Part shown: piece by piece, positions 18,543-48,142 of the stretch
Position numbering within the stretch: the stretch's first letter is position 1
Layout: the number at the start of each line of letters is the position of its first letter
NCBI GenBank assembly: GCA_013115125.1
Contig: JABANN010000180.1
Span: 1 to 56,613, forward strand
DNA from: Perkinsus olseni
Lineage: Eukaryota
DNA: 56,613 nt
Direction of reading: 5' to 3'
Made by a program: the position numbers and the translations under genes
The notes under the pieces: model-generated
Told to the model about the DNA's origin: nothing
Databases searched by the model: none
Seen by the model: only the letters and a program-made list of their open reading frames with translations

Positions 18543-21070
18543 ATGTTAACCGACGGTACTAAAGGCCTCGAAAGTGTTATCGATCGCCTCTCACCAATTG
18601 CCATCTACGACTTTCTCGAGCCCCGTGACATCCTAGCACTTCTACTATGCAACTCAAGGTTCCTCCACTGGCTTCAACATGACGGGGCTCTGATAGTCCC
18701 CAGTGCGAGACTGGGTGCCCGACAGCAACCCTCTCAGGGACGGATAGTCCTACCATTGGTCGCTCGTGTCACCACCGTACCTCGTGTTTGCAATTTGACC
18801 GCCCTCATGAGCGTCTTCGGATGTGACTACGGTATTGGCCCCAACGTAAAATATTTGCATATTAACACTCTCAGTTCGAAGAACCTCACAGTGCCTGGCC
18901 TAGCGTACGTTGTCAATTGCTGCCCGGCCTTGGAGCGGCTTCGTCTTGTTGGTATCAACTTGGACAAGGAATTCGATCGGCTACTGCTACTACTGCGCAA
19001 ACTACCTCGTCTTAGAGAGCTAGTGGTCTCGGGTTGCGGCGCGGCAATTGACGCGGACCTGATCGCGAGCAGAATGCCCAATGTAGAAACGCTAGAGTTG
19101 GTTGGGAATGCTCCTATGAAGTCTCTCGTGGGCCTGGAAGCTCTCGAGGAGCTCAAGTATTTTGTAAAAGGAAGTGCTGTTAATAAGGAATACATCAAGC
19201 CAATTAAGGAAGGTATTACTTTGGGAGCATCCGTTCACCTTCGCGATTTTAGTGCGTGCGTTTCATGCACTCCTCAACCGGGTGGTCTTGCCCGACACTT
19301 GCTCCTCCCTCAGTGCTTCCGCGGTTGAAAAGTCTCTCATTGGACGCTTCGCGGCTGACTACACCGAAGATGCTGGAGTCTTTGGCATTGGATGATGTAA
19401 TATATTTGCGTGGTGGGAACTAGAGGTGTCAGAATAGGTGCGTATGTAGTCTTTATGGTCTAGCTAGAGGTGTCAGAATAGGTGTACTATGTAGTCTTTA
19501 TGATCTAGCTAGAGGTGTCAGAATAGGTGCATTATGTAGTCTTTATGATCTAGCTAGAGGTGTCAGAATAGGTGCACTATGTAGTCTTTATGATCTAGCT
19601 AGAGGTGTCAGAATACGTGCAGTATGCAGTCTTTATGATCTAGCTAGAGGTGTCAGAATACGTGCAGTATGTAGTCTTTATGATCTAGATAGAGGTGTCA
19701 GAATACGAGCATGTCTGTGTGTAGTTTTTGTATTCCTCAGGATTCCAACCCGCCAATTCTTCTAGAGAACCTGGAGCTGAAGTCTTCGTCGATAAGCATC
19801 GCTCAGGATGATTTTGGTCCAGCTCTGGGTCGACTATTGTCTCATTTACCTCTCTTGAAGTCCCTGTCGTTTAACTGGTCCTTCGTGCTCCCCGGCAAGG
19901 GCAATAGCAGCATCGACTCCTTGGTGGAGCACCTCGACGTTATGAGCAACGTGACGGACCTCCAGTTCGAGTACCAGTCCGGCACGACCCGCCTTGCCGA
20001 ATTCATCAACAAGTTCCCGTCACTGGAGACCCTGGGGCTGACTGGGCCATTGGAGTCTGCAGTTCTCGAATCGAGTGAGGATGCTGAGAAGTAGTTTTTA
20101 TGGGGAGACAGGGGAGCGTTAGATTTATCGGCTAGTCTCCGTCGCTTGGCGAAAATTGATTCCACTTTTCACTCGAGAGAATGGGTATGGGAGAGCAAAA
20201 ACTCCTGAGGAAAGGAATTGTTGAATGCTCTTTGCATCTATGCGACGCAACCCCGAACGATTATTATTCACTACAGTAGGGCTTTTGGAGAATCTTGGAG
20301 GTCGCTTTATGTCTAGCGCGAGGGATTTTCGCCTGCGTGATTGAGAGCTTTTGTCAGTCGGCTGGAGTAGACTCTGCGGTATATACCAGCTTCGTATGTA
20401 AATGACATTGTCTATCATGTCCACTCCGGGTGATAGAATTTCGGAGTGAATAATATCCCTCATATTCGAAAGGCAATCAGAAAACCATGCCGAAGCCAGA
20501 GACTCGGATAAGTTGTTTTTACAGGTCCAACGTGAAGCGTCTGACTGTGGTGGACACATCAGCCTCATCGTCACTGCGCCCCGAAAATCTAAGGGCTCTG
20601 CTACGACTTTGCCCTATGGTGGAGAATCTTACGTTGACCCGCGGATGTGGTGTGACACCGAACGACGTTACAGCACTGAGTCGAGTGTGCCGGGAAACCC
20701 TCAGCAAGTTGACCACCGTTGAGATAAGGAAGGCTAAGCTCGGGGTAGGAGAAATGTACTCCCCTTGGATCGAACCTGGGTCATCTGGTTCCTTTGTTAG
20801 ATGCCTTCTTCTGGACCTCTTCTCGTGGAGTCGATCGTCAGACTGATGCCATCATCAGTGCAATCTGTCACCCTTTTGTACACGGATATCTCTGTCCTAG
20901 GGTAGGCTCTCCCCTGGGCTTTCATTCTCTATCATCTTCCTTTCTTAAGATACCGTTCTGTGAAGTCCCTCGCAGCTCCCGATCGGAAGGCTACTCCCGA
21001 GGTCGAAGGCTGCGGCTCACCTCGGTTCGCTGCTTTGCGTACCGGGTCGACTGGACTGCGAGGTAGGTAG
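18543..21070 (+). CDS. Leucine-rich-repeat (F-box/RNI-like) protein, multi-exon; 3' end uncertain
   Basis: F-box-like N-terminus (IYDFLEPRDILALLLCNSRF) and repeated LxxLxL units (CPALERLRL, LPRLRELVV, MPNVETLEL, LPLLKSLSF, FPSLETLGL, CPMVENLTL). Confidence 0.75.
19420..19710. repeat. Intronic minisatellite, ~45-bp unit, ~6.5 copies
   Basis: Repeated unit CTAGAGGTGTCAGAATAGGTGCACTATGTAGTCTTTATGATCTAG. Confidence 0.95.
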
Positions 21071-25405: not shown

Positions 25406-25868
25406 ACGTTGAATAGAGTCGATCGGCTAAGTGGCACTACACGGGTGGTACTTCTGTTGGGGCATGGCATACCCGGTATGCGCTCTGAGATAGGGCATAA
25501 AGAGCTGATGCATTTTGTGAGGGTCGATCGGGCGTCTATGGCGCGTCATCTCGAATGAACTTCTCAGAGGATACGAACCAGAGTGTGATTGAAGTACCAG
25601 CTTCGCTCATACAGTAGAAATTAGTTACAACATGCCATGTTATGACTCGTGCGAGCGTCCCGTACTAGCGCAACACCGACGTGCCGCCAGTCAATGATAT
25701 CAGTATGCAACGGAACTGATAAAGGCCTCACGAGGGGGAATGTGCGTACACGTGCTGATAGCTGAAATCGATCATCATCAAATCGATCACCGCGTCAGTC
25801 GACGGCGACAACCGTGCCAGTCGACAGCGCTCCATAACATGATGGAGTGCCCCAGTATACACTATTCT

Positions 25869-25952
25869 GCGTCAGGTTCCTGATCACTGGTAGTGATACC
25901 ACAGCTATGACCGTCATACCGTCATAGTAAGACGCTTTCGTGGTGCCTCTAC
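25869..25952 (+). pseudogene. Relic of a third cytochrome P450 copy (I-helix exon)
   Basis: cgtcaggttcctgatcactggtagtgataccacagctatgac...gacgctttcgtggtgcctctac closely matches 31204-31265 and 2349-2410, interrupted by a short insertion. Confidence 0.8.
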
Positions 25953-25959
25953 ACCATTT

Positions 25960-26077
25960 CCAGACCTACTTAGTAAAACCCCAGAGCAATTTAATAAAGC
26001 CCAGCCCAAATTAGTAAAACCCCAAAGCAATTTAATAAAGCCCAGACCAAATTAGTAAAACCCCAAAGCAATTTAAT
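25960..26077. repeat. 41-bp tandem repeat, ~3 copies
   Basis: TTAGTAAAACCCCA(G/A)AGCAATTTAATAAAGCCCAG(C/A)CCAAA starting at 25970, 26011 and 26052. Confidence 0.92.
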
Positions 26078-28427
26078 TTCGTGAAAGACCGAGTGTCCAG
26101 GCAGCCGGCGCTGAAGGCGTGCCCGTGCTGCTCCTGCTTCTTCTTGATGTATAGTTTAACCTCCCTGAGACTCACAGCGAGCAGGGGTATCGATGGCGAC
26201 TGGCGTCTCAACTCGTGGCACTTCACATTGTAGCGATGCAGCAGGTCGGACGCAGTGTCCCGGGGTTTCATATGGAGCCATATATCCTCCCATACCTCAG
26301 TCATCGCCTCATTATATTCACAGTCTGGCACGACGGGGACCTCTCCAGACATCATCCTGAACCGTAACCTTCTCTTCCGGGGGCTTGGTGGGGATGGAAG
26401 GGGGGCAGTGAGCCAATCCGGCTCAACGGTCGAGCCCAACAAGTATTGCTCAATCTTCGAGAGCTCCTCATCAACAGCTTCCCGGGACGTCGACGATTGC
26501 GCAGTCGCATCCACACCGGTCGCCACCCAGTCATCATCCGTATCAATGTTTTGTGGGAGGTCAGCAACATTGACATCCTTGGACCCACACCCTCCATCCT
26601 CAAAGTCCAAGCGCTCGTACTCGAAGCGTGCGAGCTCGCTGAGCTCGTCGTCCGCAGCAGTGTCCACCGTGGAGGCGGTCTCCGCGGTTTTCCAAGCCTC
26701 GTTGAGGGAATCAGTGATCTCATGATTGTAGTAGTCCCACCCAAACCTCACCTCGGTGGCTGACTCCGGAGCCAATTGCCACTCAGGATAATCGTCGGCC
26801 ATTCCCAGCTCTTGATAAAGTGATGCTTCCCTGGGCCCCAATCCAATGTGTGGCATCTTCAGACCCCATTTTTCTCGCTTCCTCCTATTCCATGTAAGTG
26901 CCCACCAGAGAGCTCTACAGTCAAATAACTGACGCCCCAGACCACGGACGCCGAACAGCAGCCTATGGATAGAAGAGTGCCCCGATTCCACCATACTTGT
27001 TCCTCGCAGACTAGCCCACTGTTGAAGGTAGTAACCACTCGAGCGATAGTTGACACGGTTGAGGGGCAGATAGGGAAGCAACGGCTGGCTGTGATCTCCA
27101 CCTCGAACTGGTTGATCGCTCATACAACAATTTCTTACATGTGTTAATTGCGATCGGAACACGGACAAAAAAGTTGAGTTGATGACCCTATAGGCCGGAT
27201 CGGTAGGCGGTAGGGGCTTGGAGATATCCCGGCCTGCCTTCTGAGCGATCGCGATCTGCTCATCGTCAACGGCCCGGTGAGCTCGCACCACGGCCATCAG
27301 GCGGTTCTCCAAGGTGATGGGGTCCGCCACTCGCCGCCTTATGAAACGACCTCGCTCTGTGCGAGTTGGCTCATCCTTGGGATCCAAACCGGCCGCTGCT
27401 CGAGCTTCATTGAGAGCTAAGATATCCCCCGGAAACGGAGTGTACAAACTTCGGGATAAATCCCTAAGCACAGCCTTCTTTCTAGGACATTCCGAATTGA
27501 TGGTTCGACTTAATCTTAGCAAGACATGAAAATTGTCTAACACAATCCGCGCTCCGAACGGGCCCTTCTTAGTTGGTGCTCCCTCGCCGAGTTCTTTTCC
27601 CGAGCAACATCGGGAATCGACAAATATGGTATGGGGCCGAGCCACTCCTGCTTCGTCATGCCTCCGCCCTATCTCATCGAAGCACGCTTCAACATGAGCT
27701 TCTTTCGCGCCTGGCCTGATGCATACTCTTAAAAACTCTGTCTTCTCATGCGCTGTCTTACTCTTCAGCATCCCCATCTTGGGTGTCCGCAGAAATAGTC
27801 CCCTGACATTCCGGTTCGTATCTGGAGTTGCACAACCTTCTCGCCGACCGCTGAAGCATCGCCTTACTTTACGGTGTGAAGACTGCACGTACACGAAACC
27901 CATTTGCTGGCACCGAAGAAGTTCCGCCGCGCGCGAGGCTCTTTCCCACTGCCCAGGTAAGGACAGAGCGATATCCTGGCCAGGAGCTCCCCAGCCTCAG
28001 ACCCCCGAGGCGGTGCCTCCCCTCTCCCCAACTTCTTGCCGCTGTAGGCCACTTGCCGTAGTATAACCATCCACTGATCAATGCCCTTACCCGATTTTGG
28101 CATAAATTGAGGAAATGAGAGACTAACAATGGCCCATGACACTGCTCTCCGGCCCTGGCTCTGGTACCAACCAATTCCAGCACGCATATGCATCTCGCAT
28201 AAAATGTTGGTCGCGCGCGATGTGCTCGCGTGCTAGAGAACTGTGTTGGACCGGCAAGGTGCTTCGTGCCTTTCACGCCCTAATCCTCCCCTTCTTCCTC
28301 TCTTCCTCTCCTCTCTCTTCCTTCTCTTCCCTTTCCTTCCTTTTCCTCTCTTTTTTTCCTCCCTTTCTTCCTCCCTTCTTCTCTTTCTCCCTTTTCCCCC
28401 TCCTTTCAGACGCTTTTCCCCCAGCCC
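26032..28427 (-). mobile_element. Dada-like DNA transposon (DDE transposase ORF 26032-27903), probably degenerate/truncated, abutting a tRNA-Phe gene
   Basis: 623-aa intronless ORF with RRHDEAGVARPHTIFVDSRCC, IVLDNFH (DxxH) and RGTSMVESGH (catalytic-Glu region), a motif order recalled for Dada transposases. The element ends at about nt 8 (TAGCTC) of tRNA-Phe. Confidence 0.72.
28284..28410. repeat. CT-rich low-complexity (polypyrimidine) tract
   Basis: About 125 nt of almost pure C/T near the transposon terminus. Confidence 0.9.
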
Positions 28428-28493
28428 TAGCTCAGTTGGGAGAGCGCCAGACTGAAGATCTGGAGGTCCTCAGTTCGATCCTGGGTCTGGGCA
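28428..28493 (+). pseudogene. 5'-truncated tRNA-Phe(GAA), nt 8-73
   Basis: Identical to 32693-32758, but the 5' acceptor strand GCCCAGA is replaced by CCAGCCC and the upstream flank is non-homologous. Confidence 0.88.
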
Positions 28494-28767
28494 TAGCTAC
28501 TTAGGCTATGGTAGCTTTGCGTAGCTCATATTTAGGCCCCCACCCTGCCCCATAACGAATATATGCCTGACTACAGAAGGCTGTCGACCAAGGCCATCGT
28601 TGCCGTAGAGAGACGTCGAAAGACTTCCTGTGGGTCTTCTGACAAGTTTGGCCTTCACCTCAGTTGTGTCGAGGGGACAACAAAACCCATAGACCGCCCT
28701 TGAGTGATGGATTGAGCTCAACCATTGTATCCCATCGCATCGAGCGTTCAGCTCAGCGTAGTTTTGT

Positions 28768-28839
28768 GTCGCCATCGTCTAGTGGTTAGGACGTCACGTT
28801 GTGGCCGTGACAACCCCGATTCAAATCCGGGTAGCGACT
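28768..28839 (+). pseudogene. tRNA-His(GTG) variant, probably a pseudogene
   Basis: Differs from 33033-33104 by T6>C (C6:A67 mismatch) and G53>A (breaks the T-stem and B-box). Confidence 0.8.
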
Positions 28840-29630
28840 TTACGATCGACGTGGATTTTAGCCTTGACTTGTTTGTCGATAGATAACTGTGAAGGGTGCT
28901 CGAACCTTCTTCGGAGACCGCCAACACAGTCCTTCGTATGTAGCCAGGCCGTTCGGACCATCCAAGTCGGGAGTTGCTCATGATTGTAGTTTTGCCATGC
29001 AGGTAGTCGCATTGACCATGAGAAAGCGTGACAATCGTAGTGAATAACGACATTCCCCAACGAAAACAAACATCCTCATTGCCATGATTGATGACGAGCT
29101 CACCCACACTCTCAGTCGGGCGGAGATTGTAGGGGTAAGTAAAACTGACGAGGTACCCGACGGCGCTACCCATGCGTCCTCGGAGCGGCGCAGCCGTCTT
29201 TCACGAATGTAAGAAGCCAAACCCACTCGAGCACACATGTGAAAGAGATTGTCCTTCGCTAGCGCTAGCTGTGCAGCTAGTGTCCCATTGCTGTACTGTC
29301 GGCACACGACCGGTCCAACCGGTGGTATGTGTCTCCGTTTATGTCTCCAGATGAGGAGCTGTTAGCAGGAAGATGTACCTTTATATACGTTTGGACACAC
29401 GCATACGTCGTGTCCCGGAGACACTGCCCTCCGCGACACGTATAGGGGACAGAAAAGATAGAGCAGGGATAGAGTAGAAGCCCCAGCGACAAGTATTGAG
29501 TAGCTGAGGGAGCGAGTATCTAACGGCTGAGAGACACTGCACGTATCCCAGCGGCGGATCCTGTGCCGCCAAGCTTCTGGGGTTGTGTTTAGAGGTTTCT
29601 CCACAGGGTGTACTTACAGCCCAACTTTTA

Positions 29631-31913
29631 ATGGCATCCCTACTCGCCGCTGCCCAGGGTCTCGTGGTAAAGGGTCGATCAAGTTTCCGGTCGCACGGAA
29701 CACTCATCCTTGTGTGCGGCATAGCCTCAGCACTTGCCTTGAAGGCTCTGAGGTTCTTGCGACGTACCAAGGTGGATCTCCATGCAGTCTTCGGCGGACC
29801 AAATCGGGTAAGTACATACTATTGGTTTGATCGATCCGGAGTTATCATCACCAGCTAATTCGTAACTCGGATTTCTCGCAGTTCCTTCCATTCGTTGGCT
29901 TCATACCGAAGTCGCTGGATCACCTATTTCATGCTTTGGAGATCTATGCGGACACGTACGGTGACATATACCATATCAAGTGAGAGTCAGAGAGTCTCTT
30001 CGGTTGCCCGACCGTCTGCGCGGCGCAGAAGGCGCCACCGATGGGCGTGCACCATTGCGGGAACACTGACGGTATAGCGCACTTTTCAGAACTCTCGGCA
30101 TGGACGTGGTAGCTGTGTCCAAGCCTGAGCTGGTCCGTCAAGTTTTGAATGAACGCCCGAAGACCTTCATCAAACCATTCAACAAGCACAAGATAATGCC
30201 GATCCCGGGTATGTTCAACACGGAGGGAGAAGAGTGGAAGAGGAACAGACGGTTGGGTGCCCCGGCCTTCAACGATAAGAACTCGGACGCCATGGTACCC
30301 GATATGTCCGAAGTTGCATTGAAGCTGGTAGGCTGCCAATCTCCGTCTTCCCTCCACCTTCGGGTATTCAGGTACGTCAGTTGAGATCCCTCAGCCAGGA
30401 CGGCCGTATTGTTTGGCGCCCCACAGAATGGCTTCCCCTCTGTACCCTCGATGTCTTATGTTTTACCACTTTAGGGAACGACTATAATTTTTTGAATCCT
30501 GATGGTGAGTGATGTTTCTTAGTAGAAACTTTCTACTAGAGACAGCTATGTGGTAGCACACTTCTCCTCGGGGGTATTTTATTCGCACTGTCCGCAAATT
30601 CCGAGCTCGGTCATATTCATTATCACGTCAACTATACGCGGCTCCCATGATGTTGCGCACTATGCCTTTTGTGTATCAGCGCTTGCTTGATCATCGTCAT
30701 CGTGATCGGGTCGACCCTGATAGCTCATAAAGTACTCCATCAGGTGTCCCTCTTGGCCATCGCTCCGGAGAAGTACAACAGGCGATAACAGATGGTTTGG
30801 AAGGCTCGGGTTACGCCGTACAGCTCAGTTCCTTCCCATGGATGACCCGCGATAGGTTCCCTTGGAATCTCAATCCGATGATCAAAAAGGTGAGACTCGT
30901 CCCGGGTGAGCTCGTCAGTCAATAACCTGCCCCGTTGATCAGATGCACACCGGAGTGAAGCAGCTCAACAGAATTTGCGATGAGATTAGCAGCAGTCGAC
31001 GGGCTGAGAAGCAAAGGGCAGAAGGGCGGGTGGAGCGACGCGACTTGCTCGACAAACTCTTGCATCTAGGCCCGGAGGACCTGCGGGGAAACCTCATCAC
31101 GTGAGTCATAGCCCCCTTTGGTGACTCGGCACATCCCATTTTCTGGTGCATGTGTGAATCATCGGCGAAGGTGATTAGGAAGGCCTCGGTATGCACCCCT
31201 TGCCGTCAGGTTCTTGATCGCTGGTAGTGATACCACAGCCATGACGCTTTCGTGGTGCCTCTACTATCTGTCCCTCAAACCTCCAATCCAAGCTAAGGCG
31301 AGGGCCGAGGTGGATGCCCTCAGACATGACCCCAAGACGATAGCGGACCTCAACCAGCTACCCTACGTTGAGTGCTGCATACTCGAGACACTCAGAGTGA
31401 GCCATCGTAAAATCAGGTTGAGGTATTGTGGGGTTTTTGTCAGCTGCAGCCCCCTGCTGTATTCCTCCTCAATGAGTGCATCCGTGACACAGTCCTGGAT
31501 GGAAAGAGCATCCCTTCCGGAACAGTCGTGGCGACACTCTTTCGTAAAGCGATGGTGGCGGAATCTCAAGGCGGCAAAAATTTTAAGTACGTGATCAGCT
31601 TCAGTACTTGCTTCTTTGCAACCAATGTCTCCAACGCGCCGCATGTCTCAGGCCGCAACGTTGGCTTACTCGTGATGGCTCTGCTGTTGACCAGTCCCTT
31701 GTACGTGACCATCTCGCGTTTGGTGGGGGACCTCGTCAGTGTCCCGGGCAGAATATGGCCCTCAAGGAGGCGACGATAATACTGACTTTGATTCTGAGAT
31801 ATTTTGATGATATTAAATTCGCTCATTCACCCGCGAGTGTTCGTGGAGAGGTTTCCTTTATTTATGGACCTCAGAATCTTGAGCTACGAATGTGTCAACG
31901 AGCCATCCGGTAG
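29631..31913 (+). CDS. Cytochrome P450, multi-exon, paralog B
   Basis: MASLLAAAQGLVVK..., AGSDTT, ETLR, PQRW, FGGGPRQCPG; collinear with 796-3067. Confidence 0.95.
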
Positions 31914-32685: not shown

Positions 32686-32758
32686 GCCCAGATAGCTCAG
32701 TTGGGAGAGCGCCAGACTGAAGATCTGGAGGTCCTCAGTTCGATCCTGGGTCTGGGCA
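32686..32758 (+). tRNA. tRNA-Phe(GAA)
   Basis: Full cloverleaf: GCCCAGA/TCTGGGC acceptor, CCAGA-CTGAAGA-TCTGG anticodon arm, GTTCGATC T-loop, A73. Confidence 0.96.
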
Positions 32759-33032: not shown

Positions 33033-33104
33033 GTCGCTATCGTCTAGTGGTTAGGACGTCACGTTGTGGCCGTGACAACCCCGGTTCAAATCCGGGTAGC
33101 GACT
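33033..33104 (+). tRNA. tRNA-His(GTG)
   Basis: GTCGCTA/TAGCGAC acceptor, TCACG-TTGTGGC-CGTGA anticodon arm, CCCGG-TTCAAAT-CCGGG T-arm, discriminator T. Confidence 0.94.
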
Positions 33105-33856: not shown

Positions 33857-35383
33857 TTACTCGGTGACGTCGCCAACTGGGACATCTCTGGGCAACTCAA
33901 GGTCGTCCCAGATGTTGTCCAATGCAGACACCAGCATGTCGAGATCCTTCTCGGAGTGCAGTGGTAGAGGCGTTAACCTAACACGCTCAGTGCCCCTCGG
34001 CACAGTAGGGTAGTTGATCGGCTGAAGATATATGTTGTACTCCTCCAAAAGCTTATCGGTAACTTGCTTGACCTTAACAGGGTCCCTCACCAACACCGGG
34101 ACGATGTGGCTTGTGCTGTTCATCGCCGGAAGACCCTTGGCCGCTAACTTGGCCTTCAGCTGCTTGGCGCGCAACTGCTGCATTTGTCGCTCGACGCCCG
34201 AGTGACGGAGGTAACGAACTGATGCCAAAGCACCGGCAGCGACTACGGGAGGGATCGCAGTGGTGAAAATGAAACCCGCGGCGTAGGAGCGGACGCAGTC
34301 GATGAAGTTGCTCGAAGCAGCCACGTAGCCACCAAAGACGCCATAGGCCTTCCCTAGAGTTCCAGATATAATATCGATCCGGTCAGCGACGCCATCACGC
34401 TCAGCGACACCAGCGCCATGGTCACCATACATACCAACGGCGTGGACTTCGTCGCAGAAGGTGAGGGCGTTGTACTTCTCGGCAAGGTCGCAGATCTTCT
34501 TCATCGGAGCAATAGAACCAGCCATTGAGTAAACGGACTCGAAAATGATCATTTTCGGTCTCTCAAGGGGATAAGACTTGAGGATGGCCTCCAACTTCTC
34601 GAGATTGTTGTTCTGGAAAATGACCTTCTCGCAGCCCGAGTGGCGAATTCCCTCGATCATGGAAGAATGGTTGCCCGAGTCCGAGATCATGACACAATCA
34701 GGCATGATCTTGCCTACAGCGGAGAGGGCGGCCTCGTTGGCGACGTAGCCACTAGAGAACACCAAGGCGGACTCCTTCTCATGGTTCATCGCCAACTCAT
34801 GCTCGAGTTCGACATGGTACTTGGTCGTGCCGGAGATGTTCCTAGTGCCACCAGCACCAGTACCGCTGGTATCAATAGCTTCGTGGCAGGCCTTCAGCAC
34901 CACAGGATTCTGACCCATGCCAAGATAGTCGTTCGAACAGAAAACCATGACCTCCCTAGGGACCGTGGACTCGTCGTTTTGGCCGCGGAAGGTCGCCCTC
35001 GGGAAGGTACCAACGTGCCTCTGCAGATTGGCAAAGTAGCGGTACCTCCCTTCGTCCTTCAACTTCTCGATGTTATACTCGAACTTAGTTTCATACATCT
35101 TGTCGGCGACCTTGGTAACAAGAGACCTCTTCACAACGCCCTCGTCAAGGTCGTTGTGGATCAACACGGGCTTCTCGACAGCGGACATGACCGGACAGAA
35201 GTGGGCGAAACTCTCGACCGCGGCCTGGTCGGGGATTCCCTTCATTCTAGCAACGAAGGGACACACCTCCTTCACTTCTGAGAGATTCACCGTCAACGGC
35301 GAGGACCGGGAGGCTGCAGCCGCGGCGGCCTGACGAAGCCCGGCTGAGAAACGACTGCAAGTTTGCTGACAGACGGACGACAT
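33857..35383 (-). CDS. ALAS: 5-aminolevulinate synthase (mitochondrial type), intronless
   Basis: [45 protein letters not shown] (PLP Lys), [12 protein letters not shown]-terminal transit peptide with CP motifs. Confidence 0.97.
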
Positions 35384-44854: not shown

Positions 44855-46991
44855 TCACCTGTCCGTGATAGCCCGCACCGGCCGCCCCGAAAGAGGAGGG
44901 CTCAGGAACCGCAACTTGTCCACTTCGTCCTCGTCCTCATCCTCCAACACCGATAGCGACCCTCGCTGTACTGTGGGGGGCACTGGAGTCGGTACTATGT
45001 TAGCACTAGCCGCTCGAGCCCGATTGGCGAGCCAGAGCTTCCGGGGCGTCACGCAATACTCGGTGAAATTGCGCATAGTCATCGCGAACTTTTCCGGCTG
45101 TTCTTCTTCTACCTGAAAAGAAAACCTCATCTTCTGCGGGAAGCGAAGCCAACTTTGCGCCGAAATTTTATCCGAAAAATTACGCTTTAATTCACGAAAT
45201 ACTTACACAACTTACGCAATGCTCACTAGAACCATGGGAGACAGCCGTACCGGTAACGGATACCGCCCAACCACAACAAACAGGACCTCTACGCATGACT
45301 AGCCTTGAACGTTCCACAATTCTTCATCCGTAGCAAAAAGAATATTGACCGATTCATAAAATGCATCTACCGGCGTCAACGCTTTGTCGTTAAAAACATT
45401 TCCAAGCGTAAAAAGCGATGCCCTGCCCTTCCCGTACTACCAGATGGCCACATCTCGGCACGATTTCCCATCTCACATCACAGCGCATGGACAGCAGGTG
45501 AGTGAAGAAGCGCTGATACTCTCTTTTCGGTACTATCTTATCGTGGTCACCCGTCAACAGGAGGATGGGGCACTTGGGCAAGTTAAGGGGTATCTTCCAC
45601 CGCACGTTAGTACGTTGCTTGTTCATCTCCACTATGGCCGCATCCCAGCCCTCCAGCCTTGTCGGTATTCGATAATCCTCTTGCAGCCACTGAGGAATCT
45701 TACTACTCCGATACCACGACTTCCTCATCATGAAGTCCGCCACCTCTGAGCGGAGCATTGACAGGGACAAGGCCCGGCTAACATTGCTGGTCAAGATGGA
45801 GCGGATAACGCCAGGCAAACCCATACCGGTGGTGACGGTTGGCGAAATGAGCACGACACCGCTGACGCTCTCGTTGCGGGCTGCCGACTCCAAGGCGAGT
45901 AGAGCACCAGCACCAACGCCTACGAGAATCTGGGGTAGGTTACTGCTGGCCGAATAGCGACGGAACAGTTCCACCGTCTCCCGGGCGAAGGAGACAGAAT
46001 ACGGCGGTAGGAGGACTGGACGGCCATCAGCGGCCATAATATGAACTGGCGCCGCCGGGTCCCTAGGCCTCTCTGTGAAGCCGTGGGCGGGGCGGTCGAA
46101 GCAGGTGACGTTGGCGTTGCACTCACTCACGAGGAGAGGTACCGACCGTTTCCAGGTGAAACAGCCGCCGCCGAACTGATGAATCAGCAGCAAGTTGACG
46201 ACTGGCGTGGTAGAACGATGGGTTTGATAGTAGCAAAGAATCCCACCAGCAGTATCTCGATACGGCCATTCCATATCGTCATAGTCCATGCCAGTGGCCG
46301 TGCAGAGGTAGTGAGCGTCGGGTCCGGGAGCGAAGACACGGTGAGCGGAGTCAGCAGATACCGTGGAGGACTTCGAACCTTGCTCGAGGTCCATGTCGCT
46401 GTCAACGCTGCTGGTGACGGTGATCTCCTTGGGACGGTCGGGGCCGAGCAAGGGCGCCTCTAGGTCAGCGTTATGGACTTGTCGGTGATGATGACGAGGG
46501 CGACGCCTGGCGAAGGGAAACCGCGCTGTTAACCGGAAGTTGGCGTTGAAGCGACACAGTTTTCGCTGCCGTATACGGTCTGAATGCTTGAGAAAGAACA
46601 CTCCCTCCAGGACACAGAGGACGATGATGGTGAGCGTGTGACCGGGCATCCTCTCTGAAGTGGTATAGAGCCAAAGCGTGTAGACGATAGACGCTACTAC
46701 TGTGACCGAAACGACTATGTCCGGGACCATAGAGGTTCTACGCCGGTACTGGAAGGCGATGTTGATGATAATAAAACGCACAACAAAAATGGCCACATAA
46801 GCGTACAAGGCAAACAGGCTGTAATGGTACTGGTTGTTGACGAAGTTGCCCACGGAAGAAAGGCAGACTATCAGGTCAAGCAAAGAGAGAATGCGGGGTA
46901 CACGGGACTTAAGCAAGAACAACAGGCAGTTAATGGCAAACTTAAGGGCAAAAAGCCATTCTAAGGCCTTAGACGACGATGCCCCTGCCAT
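44855..46991 (-). CDS. Multi-pass membrane protein with C-terminal alpha/beta-hydrolase fold (2+ exons)
   Basis: N-terminal TM helices; LLIHQFGGG, FDRPAHGFT, VGVGAG elbow, TGDHDKIVP, and CGHL|VEEEQPEKF across an intron at ~45114-45442. Confidence 0.8.
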
Positions 46992-47120: not shown

Positions 47121-48142
47121 ATGAGCGTTCCTGTTGCCTCGAGTGGCTCCTGTTCCTCGGGTTCGGTCACCAGTCCCGAAGTCCAACCGCCGGCCTCCAC
47201 GGCTGATGGCCAGTCAGTGTCCCTCCTCCTGCAGAGTGAGGACGATACCGTAAGGCTAGGCCAGCAGATAGCAAGCGTCGTGCGCCCGGGCTGCACAGTA
47301 CTGCTGAAGGGAAATCTGGGCGCGGGCAAAACATGCCTGGCACGAGCCCTATTGAGACACGTCATGCAGAAGGAAGCCCTGGAAGTGCCGAGCCCCAGCT
47401 ATTTGATAAGCTTCACGTATGTTGTTGAGGACGACTATGGTCTGTTGAAGAAGGGCTCCAAGGTAGCGGTGGTGGGCTGGGGTTGATGGACAGGTCCGGT
47501 GTAGGTGCATCATTTGGACCCCTACAGGCTGGCGTCGGGCAAGGTGGCTGCTTTGTTCGACTTTGATACTGCCTTTAAGGAGGATATCACTATCATCGAG
47601 TGGCCTGAGCGACTTGGTAGGGAGTTAATCGGTTGATAGTGTGATTGTAGCATAAAATTTGAGAAGGTGACACCGGTAGGCTTTAATCAGTTGACAGTGT
47701 CATTGTAGCATAAAATTTGAGAAGGTGACACGGGTAGGCTTTAATCGGTTGACAGTGTCATTGTAGCATAAAATTTGAGATGGTGACACCGGTAGGCTTT
47801 AATCCGTTGACTTTGTTATTGTAGCATAAAATTTGAGAAAGTTAGACCGGTAGGTATTTAATCGGTTGACAGTGTGACTGTAGCATAAAATTTGAGATAG
47901 TGGAACCGTAAGCGCGCTACCAAGCAGGTGCCGTTGCTTTCTCAGGGGCCAATGTGGCACCCCCGACCAGCTCTTCCCTAGTGGTCTACTTCAGTGGCGT
48001 TGGTCCGCAGGCGGTAGGCCGACACGTCACGTTAAGCTGCAGCGACGATGCTGAGTACTGGAGCTCGGTGCTCAAGACCTGGCCGCCAGAAATCCGGACG
48101 GGGAAGCCTCGTCCGGTGGCAGACCAACAGGGGACGATCGTG
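47121..48142 (+). CDS. tsaE: TsaE (YjeE) ATPase domain; exons 47121-47462, 47505-47616, 47946-48142; likely the N-terminal part of a TsaE-TsaD fusion
   Basis: LLKGNLGAGKT (Walker A), VPSPSY, HLDPYRL, IIEWPERL. Confidence 0.92.
47617..47907. repeat. Intronic minisatellite, 58-bp unit x5
   Basis: GTAGGCTTTAATCGGTTGACAGTGTCATTGTAGCATAAAATTTGAGAAGGTGACACCG starting at 47617, 47676, 47734, 47792 and 47850. Confidence 0.95.

Follow-up and report, generated by a model that had tools for sequence, protein, structure and literature searches.

What kind of element abuts the broken tRNA-Phe gene in Perkinsus olseni contig JABANN010000180.1, and did it arrive there by choice of site or by chance? The window, the 56 613-nt stretch analysed here, carries a transposase-like open reading frame directly upstream of the 3′ part of this gene, and a first-pass annotation had proposed a Dada-like transposon inserted at the A box. 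Dada is one of the few groups of eukaryotic DNA transposons with sequence-specific insertion, and its target reading is treated as unsolved (PMC8869645). The host genus is a shellfish parasite, and Dada families of P. marinus are already known (PMC3706591). Statements on these two papers refer to the passages of them covered here. We conclude that the element is very probably a degenerate Dada transposon whose insertion into one of about 10 Perkinsus tRNA-Phe genes was site-specific, at the A box (nt 8-13).

Insertion site

Identity with the intact tRNA-Phe(GAA) gene, the uninserted reference copy at 32686-32758 on the forward strand (tRNA-His partner at 33033-33104; ARAGORN), begins at TAGCTCAG, position 28428, which is tRNA nt 8. 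It continues through nt 8-73 with 0/66 differences from 32693-32758, so that the homology start given earlier holds, and this 3′ part of the disrupted target occupies 28428-28493 (forward strand). The breakpoint between element and tRNA-Phe(GAA), read from the assembled sequence, is 28427|28428, and the junction has the form CCCCAGCCC|TAGCTCAG. The A and B boxes of the disrupted gene are intact, and the element end stands in for the 5′ strand of the acceptor stem. The hexamer TAGCTC (nt 8-13; 28428-28433, forward strand) would be one copy of a target-site duplication (TSD) whose partner is missing; it is the published TSD of Dada-tI/tY_PMar (PMC3706591) and of the fish tY/tK elements (PMC8869645).

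The tRNA 5′ half and the distal end of the element are absent from the window, as had been noticed before, and none was recognisable elsewhere in the assembly; neither the window nor the assembly yielded a second element end or a TSD pair for this copy. The tRNA-Phe 5′ 13-mer GCCCAGATAGCTC has 11 matches in the genome, comprising eight genes (intact as far as assembled), one 3′-truncated gene and two bare 13-mers. The bare 13-mers, on C2213 and C2691, were considered as far ends and rejected, there being no Dada homology nearby. A Dada insertion is present in one of 10 tRNA-Phe loci, the window copy included.

Element end

The stretch upstream of the junction, from about 28270 to 28427 (forward strand), is 94% C+T, in agreement with the CT-rich terminus of the first-pass annotation, and closes in TTTTCCCCCAGCCC at 28414-28427. 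This is a pyrimidine-rich end with the CCCCAGC motif, a feature of published fish Dada ends. Such ends are seen in the published Dada sequences rather than stated as a criterion in the passages covered; within the supplementary Dada set, TTCCCCAGC occurs 19 times, and in 17 of these it is the last part of an entry, behind a pyrimidine run (PMC8869645). The GCCC directly before TAGCTC had been thought to blur the breakpoint by a few nucleotides. It belongs to the element, because TTTTCCCCCAGCCC also closes the elements in front of tRNA-Asn, -Asp and -Val targets, which leaves the breakpoint unambiguous.

The TTTTCCCCCAGCCC motif has 23 genomic matches at up to one mismatch, against three for a control. 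We inspected 19 of these 23 and eight of 22 matches of a different end pattern, and lined up 14 pyrimidine-rich ends from this genome. Ten of them adjoin tRNA genes: seven at nt 8 (Phe, Tyr, Lys, Arg, Asn, and Gly twice), with degenerate hexamers at Tyr and Asn, and three antisense in the anticodon arm (Asp twice, and Val), the Asp calls being made by eye, at Rfam scores under the cut-off. The same two classes of site are described by Kojima 2022 (PMC8869645). The other four ends (C436, C1150, C2014 and C2815) have no recognisable small RNA adjoining them in Rfam, whose miRNA rows there are low-complexity noise below gathering scores, and targeting is therefore not strict. Random placement of the other copies of this terminus, the outcome named beforehand as speaking against a targeted element, is nonetheless not what this distribution shows.

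Several of these loci deserve separate mention. Tandem Dada copies joined by the A-box hexamer lie at tRNA-Arg on C3053 and at tRNA-Gly on C2617; the left ends at these tandem junctions begin like a continuation of the tRNA and have no inverted purine run, and the window copy shows one end only. On C2727 (4279-7206) a 976-aa uninterrupted Dada ORF lies antisense in the anticodon arm of tRNA-Asp, and related ends are found at tRNA-Asp and tRNA-Val on C1968 and C1833; the site class of these three elements is that of fish Dada-tD/tV.

Transposase remnant

The ORF that had been taken for the transposase runs from 26032 to 27903 on the reverse strand (623 aa), opposite in direction to tRNA-Phe, and its near-identical database matches are P. 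olseni hypothetical proteins. Its first ~68 and last ~18 residues have no homology to relatives. The true N-terminal coding piece lies in a different frame at 27864-28103 (reverse strand), from an ATG at 28103 to a stop codon, and matches seven relatives (P0004, P0009, P0011, P0012, P0017, P0020 and P0035) from residue 1 onward (tblastn E 4e-14 to 5e-3); by eye, Dada-tY_CaAu has the same N-terminal pattern. A frame-shifted linker remnant and the junction of an internal deletion follow at 27700-27863 (reverse strand). Residues 1-305 of P0003, an 804-aa allele, have no match in the window, homology to P0003 starting only at about 27699. Among them are the cysteines of a CCCC zinc finger and D1, the first catalytic Asp, whose motif is absent from the window core.

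The core itself (26091-27699, reverse strand) is recognised by motifs and folds, is 98% identical to P0003, and carries D2 at 27618, DxxH at 27537/27528 and E at 26988, then an acidic linker, together with a helical Myb/homeodomain-like module. The missing C-terminus has a CCHC finger in P0005, which is 95% identical over the overlap; no close match to this P0005 C-terminus was found in the assembly. Dada homology stops at 26091, where the terminus of an unrelated TA-flanked inverted-repeat transposon starts (25950-26090, forward strand; the terminal ~141 bp, with 41-bp repeats). This terminus has 50 matches in the genome, is 100% identical to sequences on C2990 and C2818, and shows where the Dada far end was lost.

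The 623-aa ORF is thus a chimera, since the true start is at 28103, an internal deletion took out the zinc finger together with the first Asp, and the far end was lost at the other transposon. With a frameshift, an internal deletion and no far end, the tRNA-Phe copy is dead. The earlier description of a DDE-type transposase opposite to the tRNA stands, while its identification with the 623-aa ORF does not.

Two side observations concern these parts. At about 26095-26340 (core residues 455-535) the model shows a three-helix module that resembles DNA-binding domains of the Myb/GARP and homeodomain types at Z 6-7 and is a tentative candidate for the part that reads the target. The TA-flanked transposon with its 41-bp subterminal repeats has copies on C2990, C2818, C2841 and C349; a piece of it interrupts a Dada-like copy on C349, and the C2990 copy carries an ORF that is Tc1/IS630-like by eye.

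Assignment to Dada

The pyrimidine-rich CCCCAGC end, a DDE fold, catalytic spacing like that of Dada-U6_DR and the junction at nt 8 support identification of the element as a Dada transposon sited at a tRNA A box, as first proposed. Catalytic residues (D567/D635/E811) and zinc-finger positions are published for Dada-U6_DR (PMC3706591). In P0003 the distance from the last zinc-finger Cys to D1 is 133 (135 in Dada-U6_DR), that from D1 to D2 is 68 in both, and that from D2 to E is 210 (176). The DDE triad with DxxH after D2 is present, with D1 (D274) in P0003 and deleted from the window copy. Zinc fingers are found in the alleles, CCCC in P0003 (C101, C104, C138, C141) and CCHC in P0005, and both are lost from the window copy. 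A fixed site in a multicopy small-RNA gene is given by nt 8 of tRNA-Phe and by the tRNA sites of most related ends.

The P0003 model (pLDDT 83.5, built from 40 sequences) is closest to ISCth4 (Foldseek E 7.9e-4; Z 10.6, rmsd 3.7, 261 aligned), then to the P-element transposase (Z 9.2, rmsd 5.3, 250 aligned), with integrases and Hermes lower. This predicted fold is that of the C/DxxH group, to which PMC3706591 ties Dada, described there as related to MuDR, hAT, P, Kolobok and IS256. Modelled alone, the window core (pLDDT 67.9, D1 strands missing) gave Z 5.5 to ISCth4 and no Foldseek match at E <=0.001. The first atlas match was to DUF6729 chordate clusters (0.97) and the third to an unnamed basidiomycete cluster (0.95); the best Mutator row (0.82) is a lead only. 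Pfam DUF6729 is weakly matched by 9/40 relatives at E up to 0.01, below the Pfam cut-off, and Pfam assigned the 623-aa window ORF to no family, with no MULE match. A PDB sequence search with alignment A3 found nothing below E 0.2. The homologous-protein search returned P. olseni alleles only, with none among very long proteins and no named fish Dada. Judged by eye only, the D1, D2, DxxH, E and N-terminal motifs of fish tL, tY and of Dada-tL_PMar follow the A3 consensus.

tRNA-Phe as a target

The first-pass annotation had not counted tRNA-Phe among known targets and had proposed a Phe-specific family. tRNA-Phe is not a new target: goldfish Dada-tY_CaAu has seven copies in tRNA-Tyr and two in tRNA-Phe-GAA, at nt 8-13, with a published tRNA-Phe junction, CCCAGCTT|TAGCTCAG, of the same form as that in the window, and Phe is listed among the tRNAs taken by Dada-tY/tK (Kojima 2022, PMC8869645). 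For that family Phe is the minor target, entered at the same nucleotide as in the window.

The transposase of the Phe lineage is 28% identical to that of the Asn family, 33% to that of the Lys family and 29% to P0009, a proxy for the Tyr clade. By this sequence comparison it appears to be a distinct family using TAGCTC A boxes, for which Phe may be the main target or one of several. A family dedicated to tRNA-Phe, which would be a not yet named ‘Dada-tF’ and a special case of the site-specific Dada insertion preferred here, has a chance that we put somewhat short of even. The distinctness of the lineage favours it, as do the position of the sole copy here in tRNA-Phe and the habit of P. marinus families of keeping each to its own tRNA type (PMC3706591). 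It has to be set against a sample of one, in one of 10 loci, against the spread of fish tY and tK over Tyr, Phe and Lys, which is explained by the TAGCTC that all of these carry, and against the goldfish preference for Tyr over Phe (PMC8869645). A Phe-dedicated family is therefore plausible but unproven, given the single occupied locus, the single copy and the missing TSD pair. Among the papers listed by literature searches, none dealt with a P. olseni Dada or a Phe-specific Dada family.

Orientation of the transposase gene

The main oddity of the tRNA-Phe copy is that its gene is reversed relative to its ends. The window transposase starts 324 nt inside the pyrimidine-rich end and reads away from it. 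The Asn, Lys, Gly, Arg and Asp elements of the same genome have the ORF directed towards that end. In Dada-tY_CaAu, too, the ORF runs along the tRNA direction and towards the pyrimidine-rich end (PMC8869645), in contrast to the window ORF.

The reversal could be a local rearrangement or assembly artefact, either because end and ORF derive from separate copies or through an inversion of the core where it lies. This copy has undergone much rearrangement, its layout is known from the assembly alone, and in the eight other ends of this genome with linked coding sequence (C2909, C2675, C2617, C2858, C3053, C2727, C2815 and C1150) the ORF is directed towards the end. We nevertheless consider an artefact improbable. 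The N-terminal piece and core are collinear on one strand, with the ATG 324 nt from the end. The same layout recurs on C209 (4005-5400), where a Dada element adjoins an intron-containing tRNA-Tyr at nt 8, in the one occupied locus of five tRNA-Tyr loci, and has its ORF reversed like that of the window. On C700, which belongs to the closest full-length family, a purine run lies before the ATG, where the contig ends, and is suggestive only. A metagenome relative, P0040, has an antisense tRNA-Lys (6758-6830) 5′ of its ORF (about 7200-11363), and its C5-N5-TAGCTC join, though lacking a long run, is probably a tRNA junction, to judge by its sequence. A reversed ORF is also published: that of Dada-U6_CT of Capitella teleta runs opposite to those of sister families sharing its target site, the differences from the present case being the U6 snRNA target and the animal host (PMC3706591).

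An in-place inversion of the core, in which a forward-strand CxxC near 27880 would be the C-terminal finger, was examined separately and rejected: no C-terminus of a relative matched there better than E 0.004, and the N-terminus of relatives matched on the reverse strand instead. Half or more of the words of 25900-28900 occur in three sequencing studies besides the possible source; no RNA runs were listed. In two other ends of this genome we noted partial matches to the tRNA 5′ strand, the last 7 nt of the C209 element agreeing with tRNA-Tyr in register at 4/7 places and the C2617 Gly end apparently at 5/7.

The trees join the Phe lineage to P0126 and the forward Asn element (SH-aLRT 99) and keep it separate from that of Tyr. 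The hypothesis that the reversed elements and their proxies form one clade was rejected (AU p = 0.0004), in a test whose group was named after the first tree, in which C209 fills 23% of columns and P0009, P0011 and P0126 have no known orientation. The observations suggest that end polarity is independent of ORF direction. A fuller reading, that a Phe-dedicated family belongs to a P. olseni radiation (Phe, Tyr, Lys, Arg, Asn, Gly, Asp, Val) in which the gene cassette was flipped between fixed polar ends more than once, is tentative, and we think it rather doubtful. Were it true, the ends alone would set the polarity of insertion, and intron-poor protist transposases would be reading different versions of one A box.

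Timing and proposed course of events

The disrupted and intact genes belong to duplicated tRNA-Phe/tRNA-His pairs (28420/28768 and 32686/33033; ARAGORN). Homology of the two units continues past tRNA-Phe, with 22/234 differences in the spacer and 2/72 in tRNA-His(GUG), which lies at 28768-28839 (forward strand) in the disrupted unit. The contrast between nt 8-73 (0/66) and the 9% diverged spacer has P about 0.0015. The unchanged 3′ part of the tRNA fits an insertion after the Phe/His duplication, the alternative being gene conversion. A further piece of the local repeat unit, at 25858-25952 (forward strand), is paralogous to about 31204-31264, a segment some 1.4 kb upstream of the intact tRNA-Phe.

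Other features of the neighbourhood were recorded. A second damaged Phe/His unit, on C671 (4042-4092), has tRNA-Phe cut after nt 51 and tRNA-His about 60 nt on. Within the window, 796-3061 and 29631-31904 form a diverged duplicate (73-91%) of an intron-broken gene, P450-like by eye. Tandem arrays lie at 19398-19756, 47567-47908 and 53969-54253 (units of 45, 58 and 55 bp, respectively), and ordinary genes encode a class I/II aminotransferase (33857-35383), an alpha/beta hydrolase (45390-46991) and TsaD/Kae1 (49336-50298).

From the Dada papers and DDE chemistry we infer that the transposase would recognise the TAGCTCAG target directly and make a 6-bp staggered cut, by which TAGCTC would be duplicated. 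The ends would be joined in fixed polarity, with the pyrimidine-rich end downstream of the hexamer whatever the direction of the ORF. The insertion would be later than the duplication and divergence of the tRNA-Phe/His unit; the TA-inserting inverted-repeat transposon would then have entered some 1.4 kb upstream, and a deletion starting within it may have taken out the 5′ half of the tRNA along with the far end of Dada and its C-terminal zinc finger. Spare tRNA-Phe copies would absorb the loss of the disrupted gene.

That loss would be avoided if the element end rebuilt the acceptor stem and the disrupted gene still yielded a working tRNA-Phe. The locus still scores as a tRNA in ARAGORN and in Rfam (46.3 bits), nt 8-73 are unchanged, and CCCAG is able to pair with the acceptor 3′ strand. 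The stem so drawn requires one C-T mismatch and an additional base ahead of T8, however, a recent insertion accounts for the unchanged 3′ part, and the end is not shaped for Phe, because it also stands before Asn, Asp and Val targets and has been conserved among fish elements; we regard such a rescue as very improbable. Least credible of all is a non-targeted MULE- or Kolobok-like element in the tRNA by chance, since the best structural match, the IS256/MULE-type ISCth4, is offset by the relationship of Dada itself to MuDR, hAT, P, Kolobok and IS256 (PMC3706591), chance insertion is largely refuted by the end survey (10/14 at tRNA sites), and the left ends on C3053 and C2617 lack the inverted purine run.

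Significance and comparison with known systems

What is new here is a further Dada element at a described kind of site, and by itself the window copy adds little, because it is dead and its target site was already described. More can be learnt from the set around it, several diverged families of a single protist genome that each occupy a different tRNA and share the same polar end, with ORFs in either orientation. These families offer natural pairs for locating the target-recognition module, for which the Myb/homeodomain-like helical module is a candidate.

Among more distant systems, ISCth4 (IS256), the P-element and Hermes (hAT) share with P0003 an RNase H-like DDE core and a C/DxxH helical insertion at only 9-12% identity. 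These three have terminal inverted repeats (TIRs) and are not known to target small-RNA genes. MuDR/MULE elements have long TIRs, an 8-11-bp TSD and untargeted insertion.

The nearest published counterparts of the window element include Dada-tIA/tIB/tY/tG_PMar, which share a Perkinsus host, the A-box site at nt 8-13, and TAGCTC followed by AG (PMC3706591). The Dada_PMar families resemble the P0003 and P0005 alleles in having DDE with DxxH and two zinc fingers, and differ in their targets, which are given there as Ile, Leu, Gly and Tyr, without Phe (PMC3706591). Dada-tY_CaAu and the fish tK/tN/tR/tS/tL elements have the pyrimidine-rich CCCCAGC end of the window copy and, by eye, like N-terminal and catalytic motif patterns, whereas the fish elements contain introns and often have TAGCTC exchanged for another hexamer (PMC8869645).
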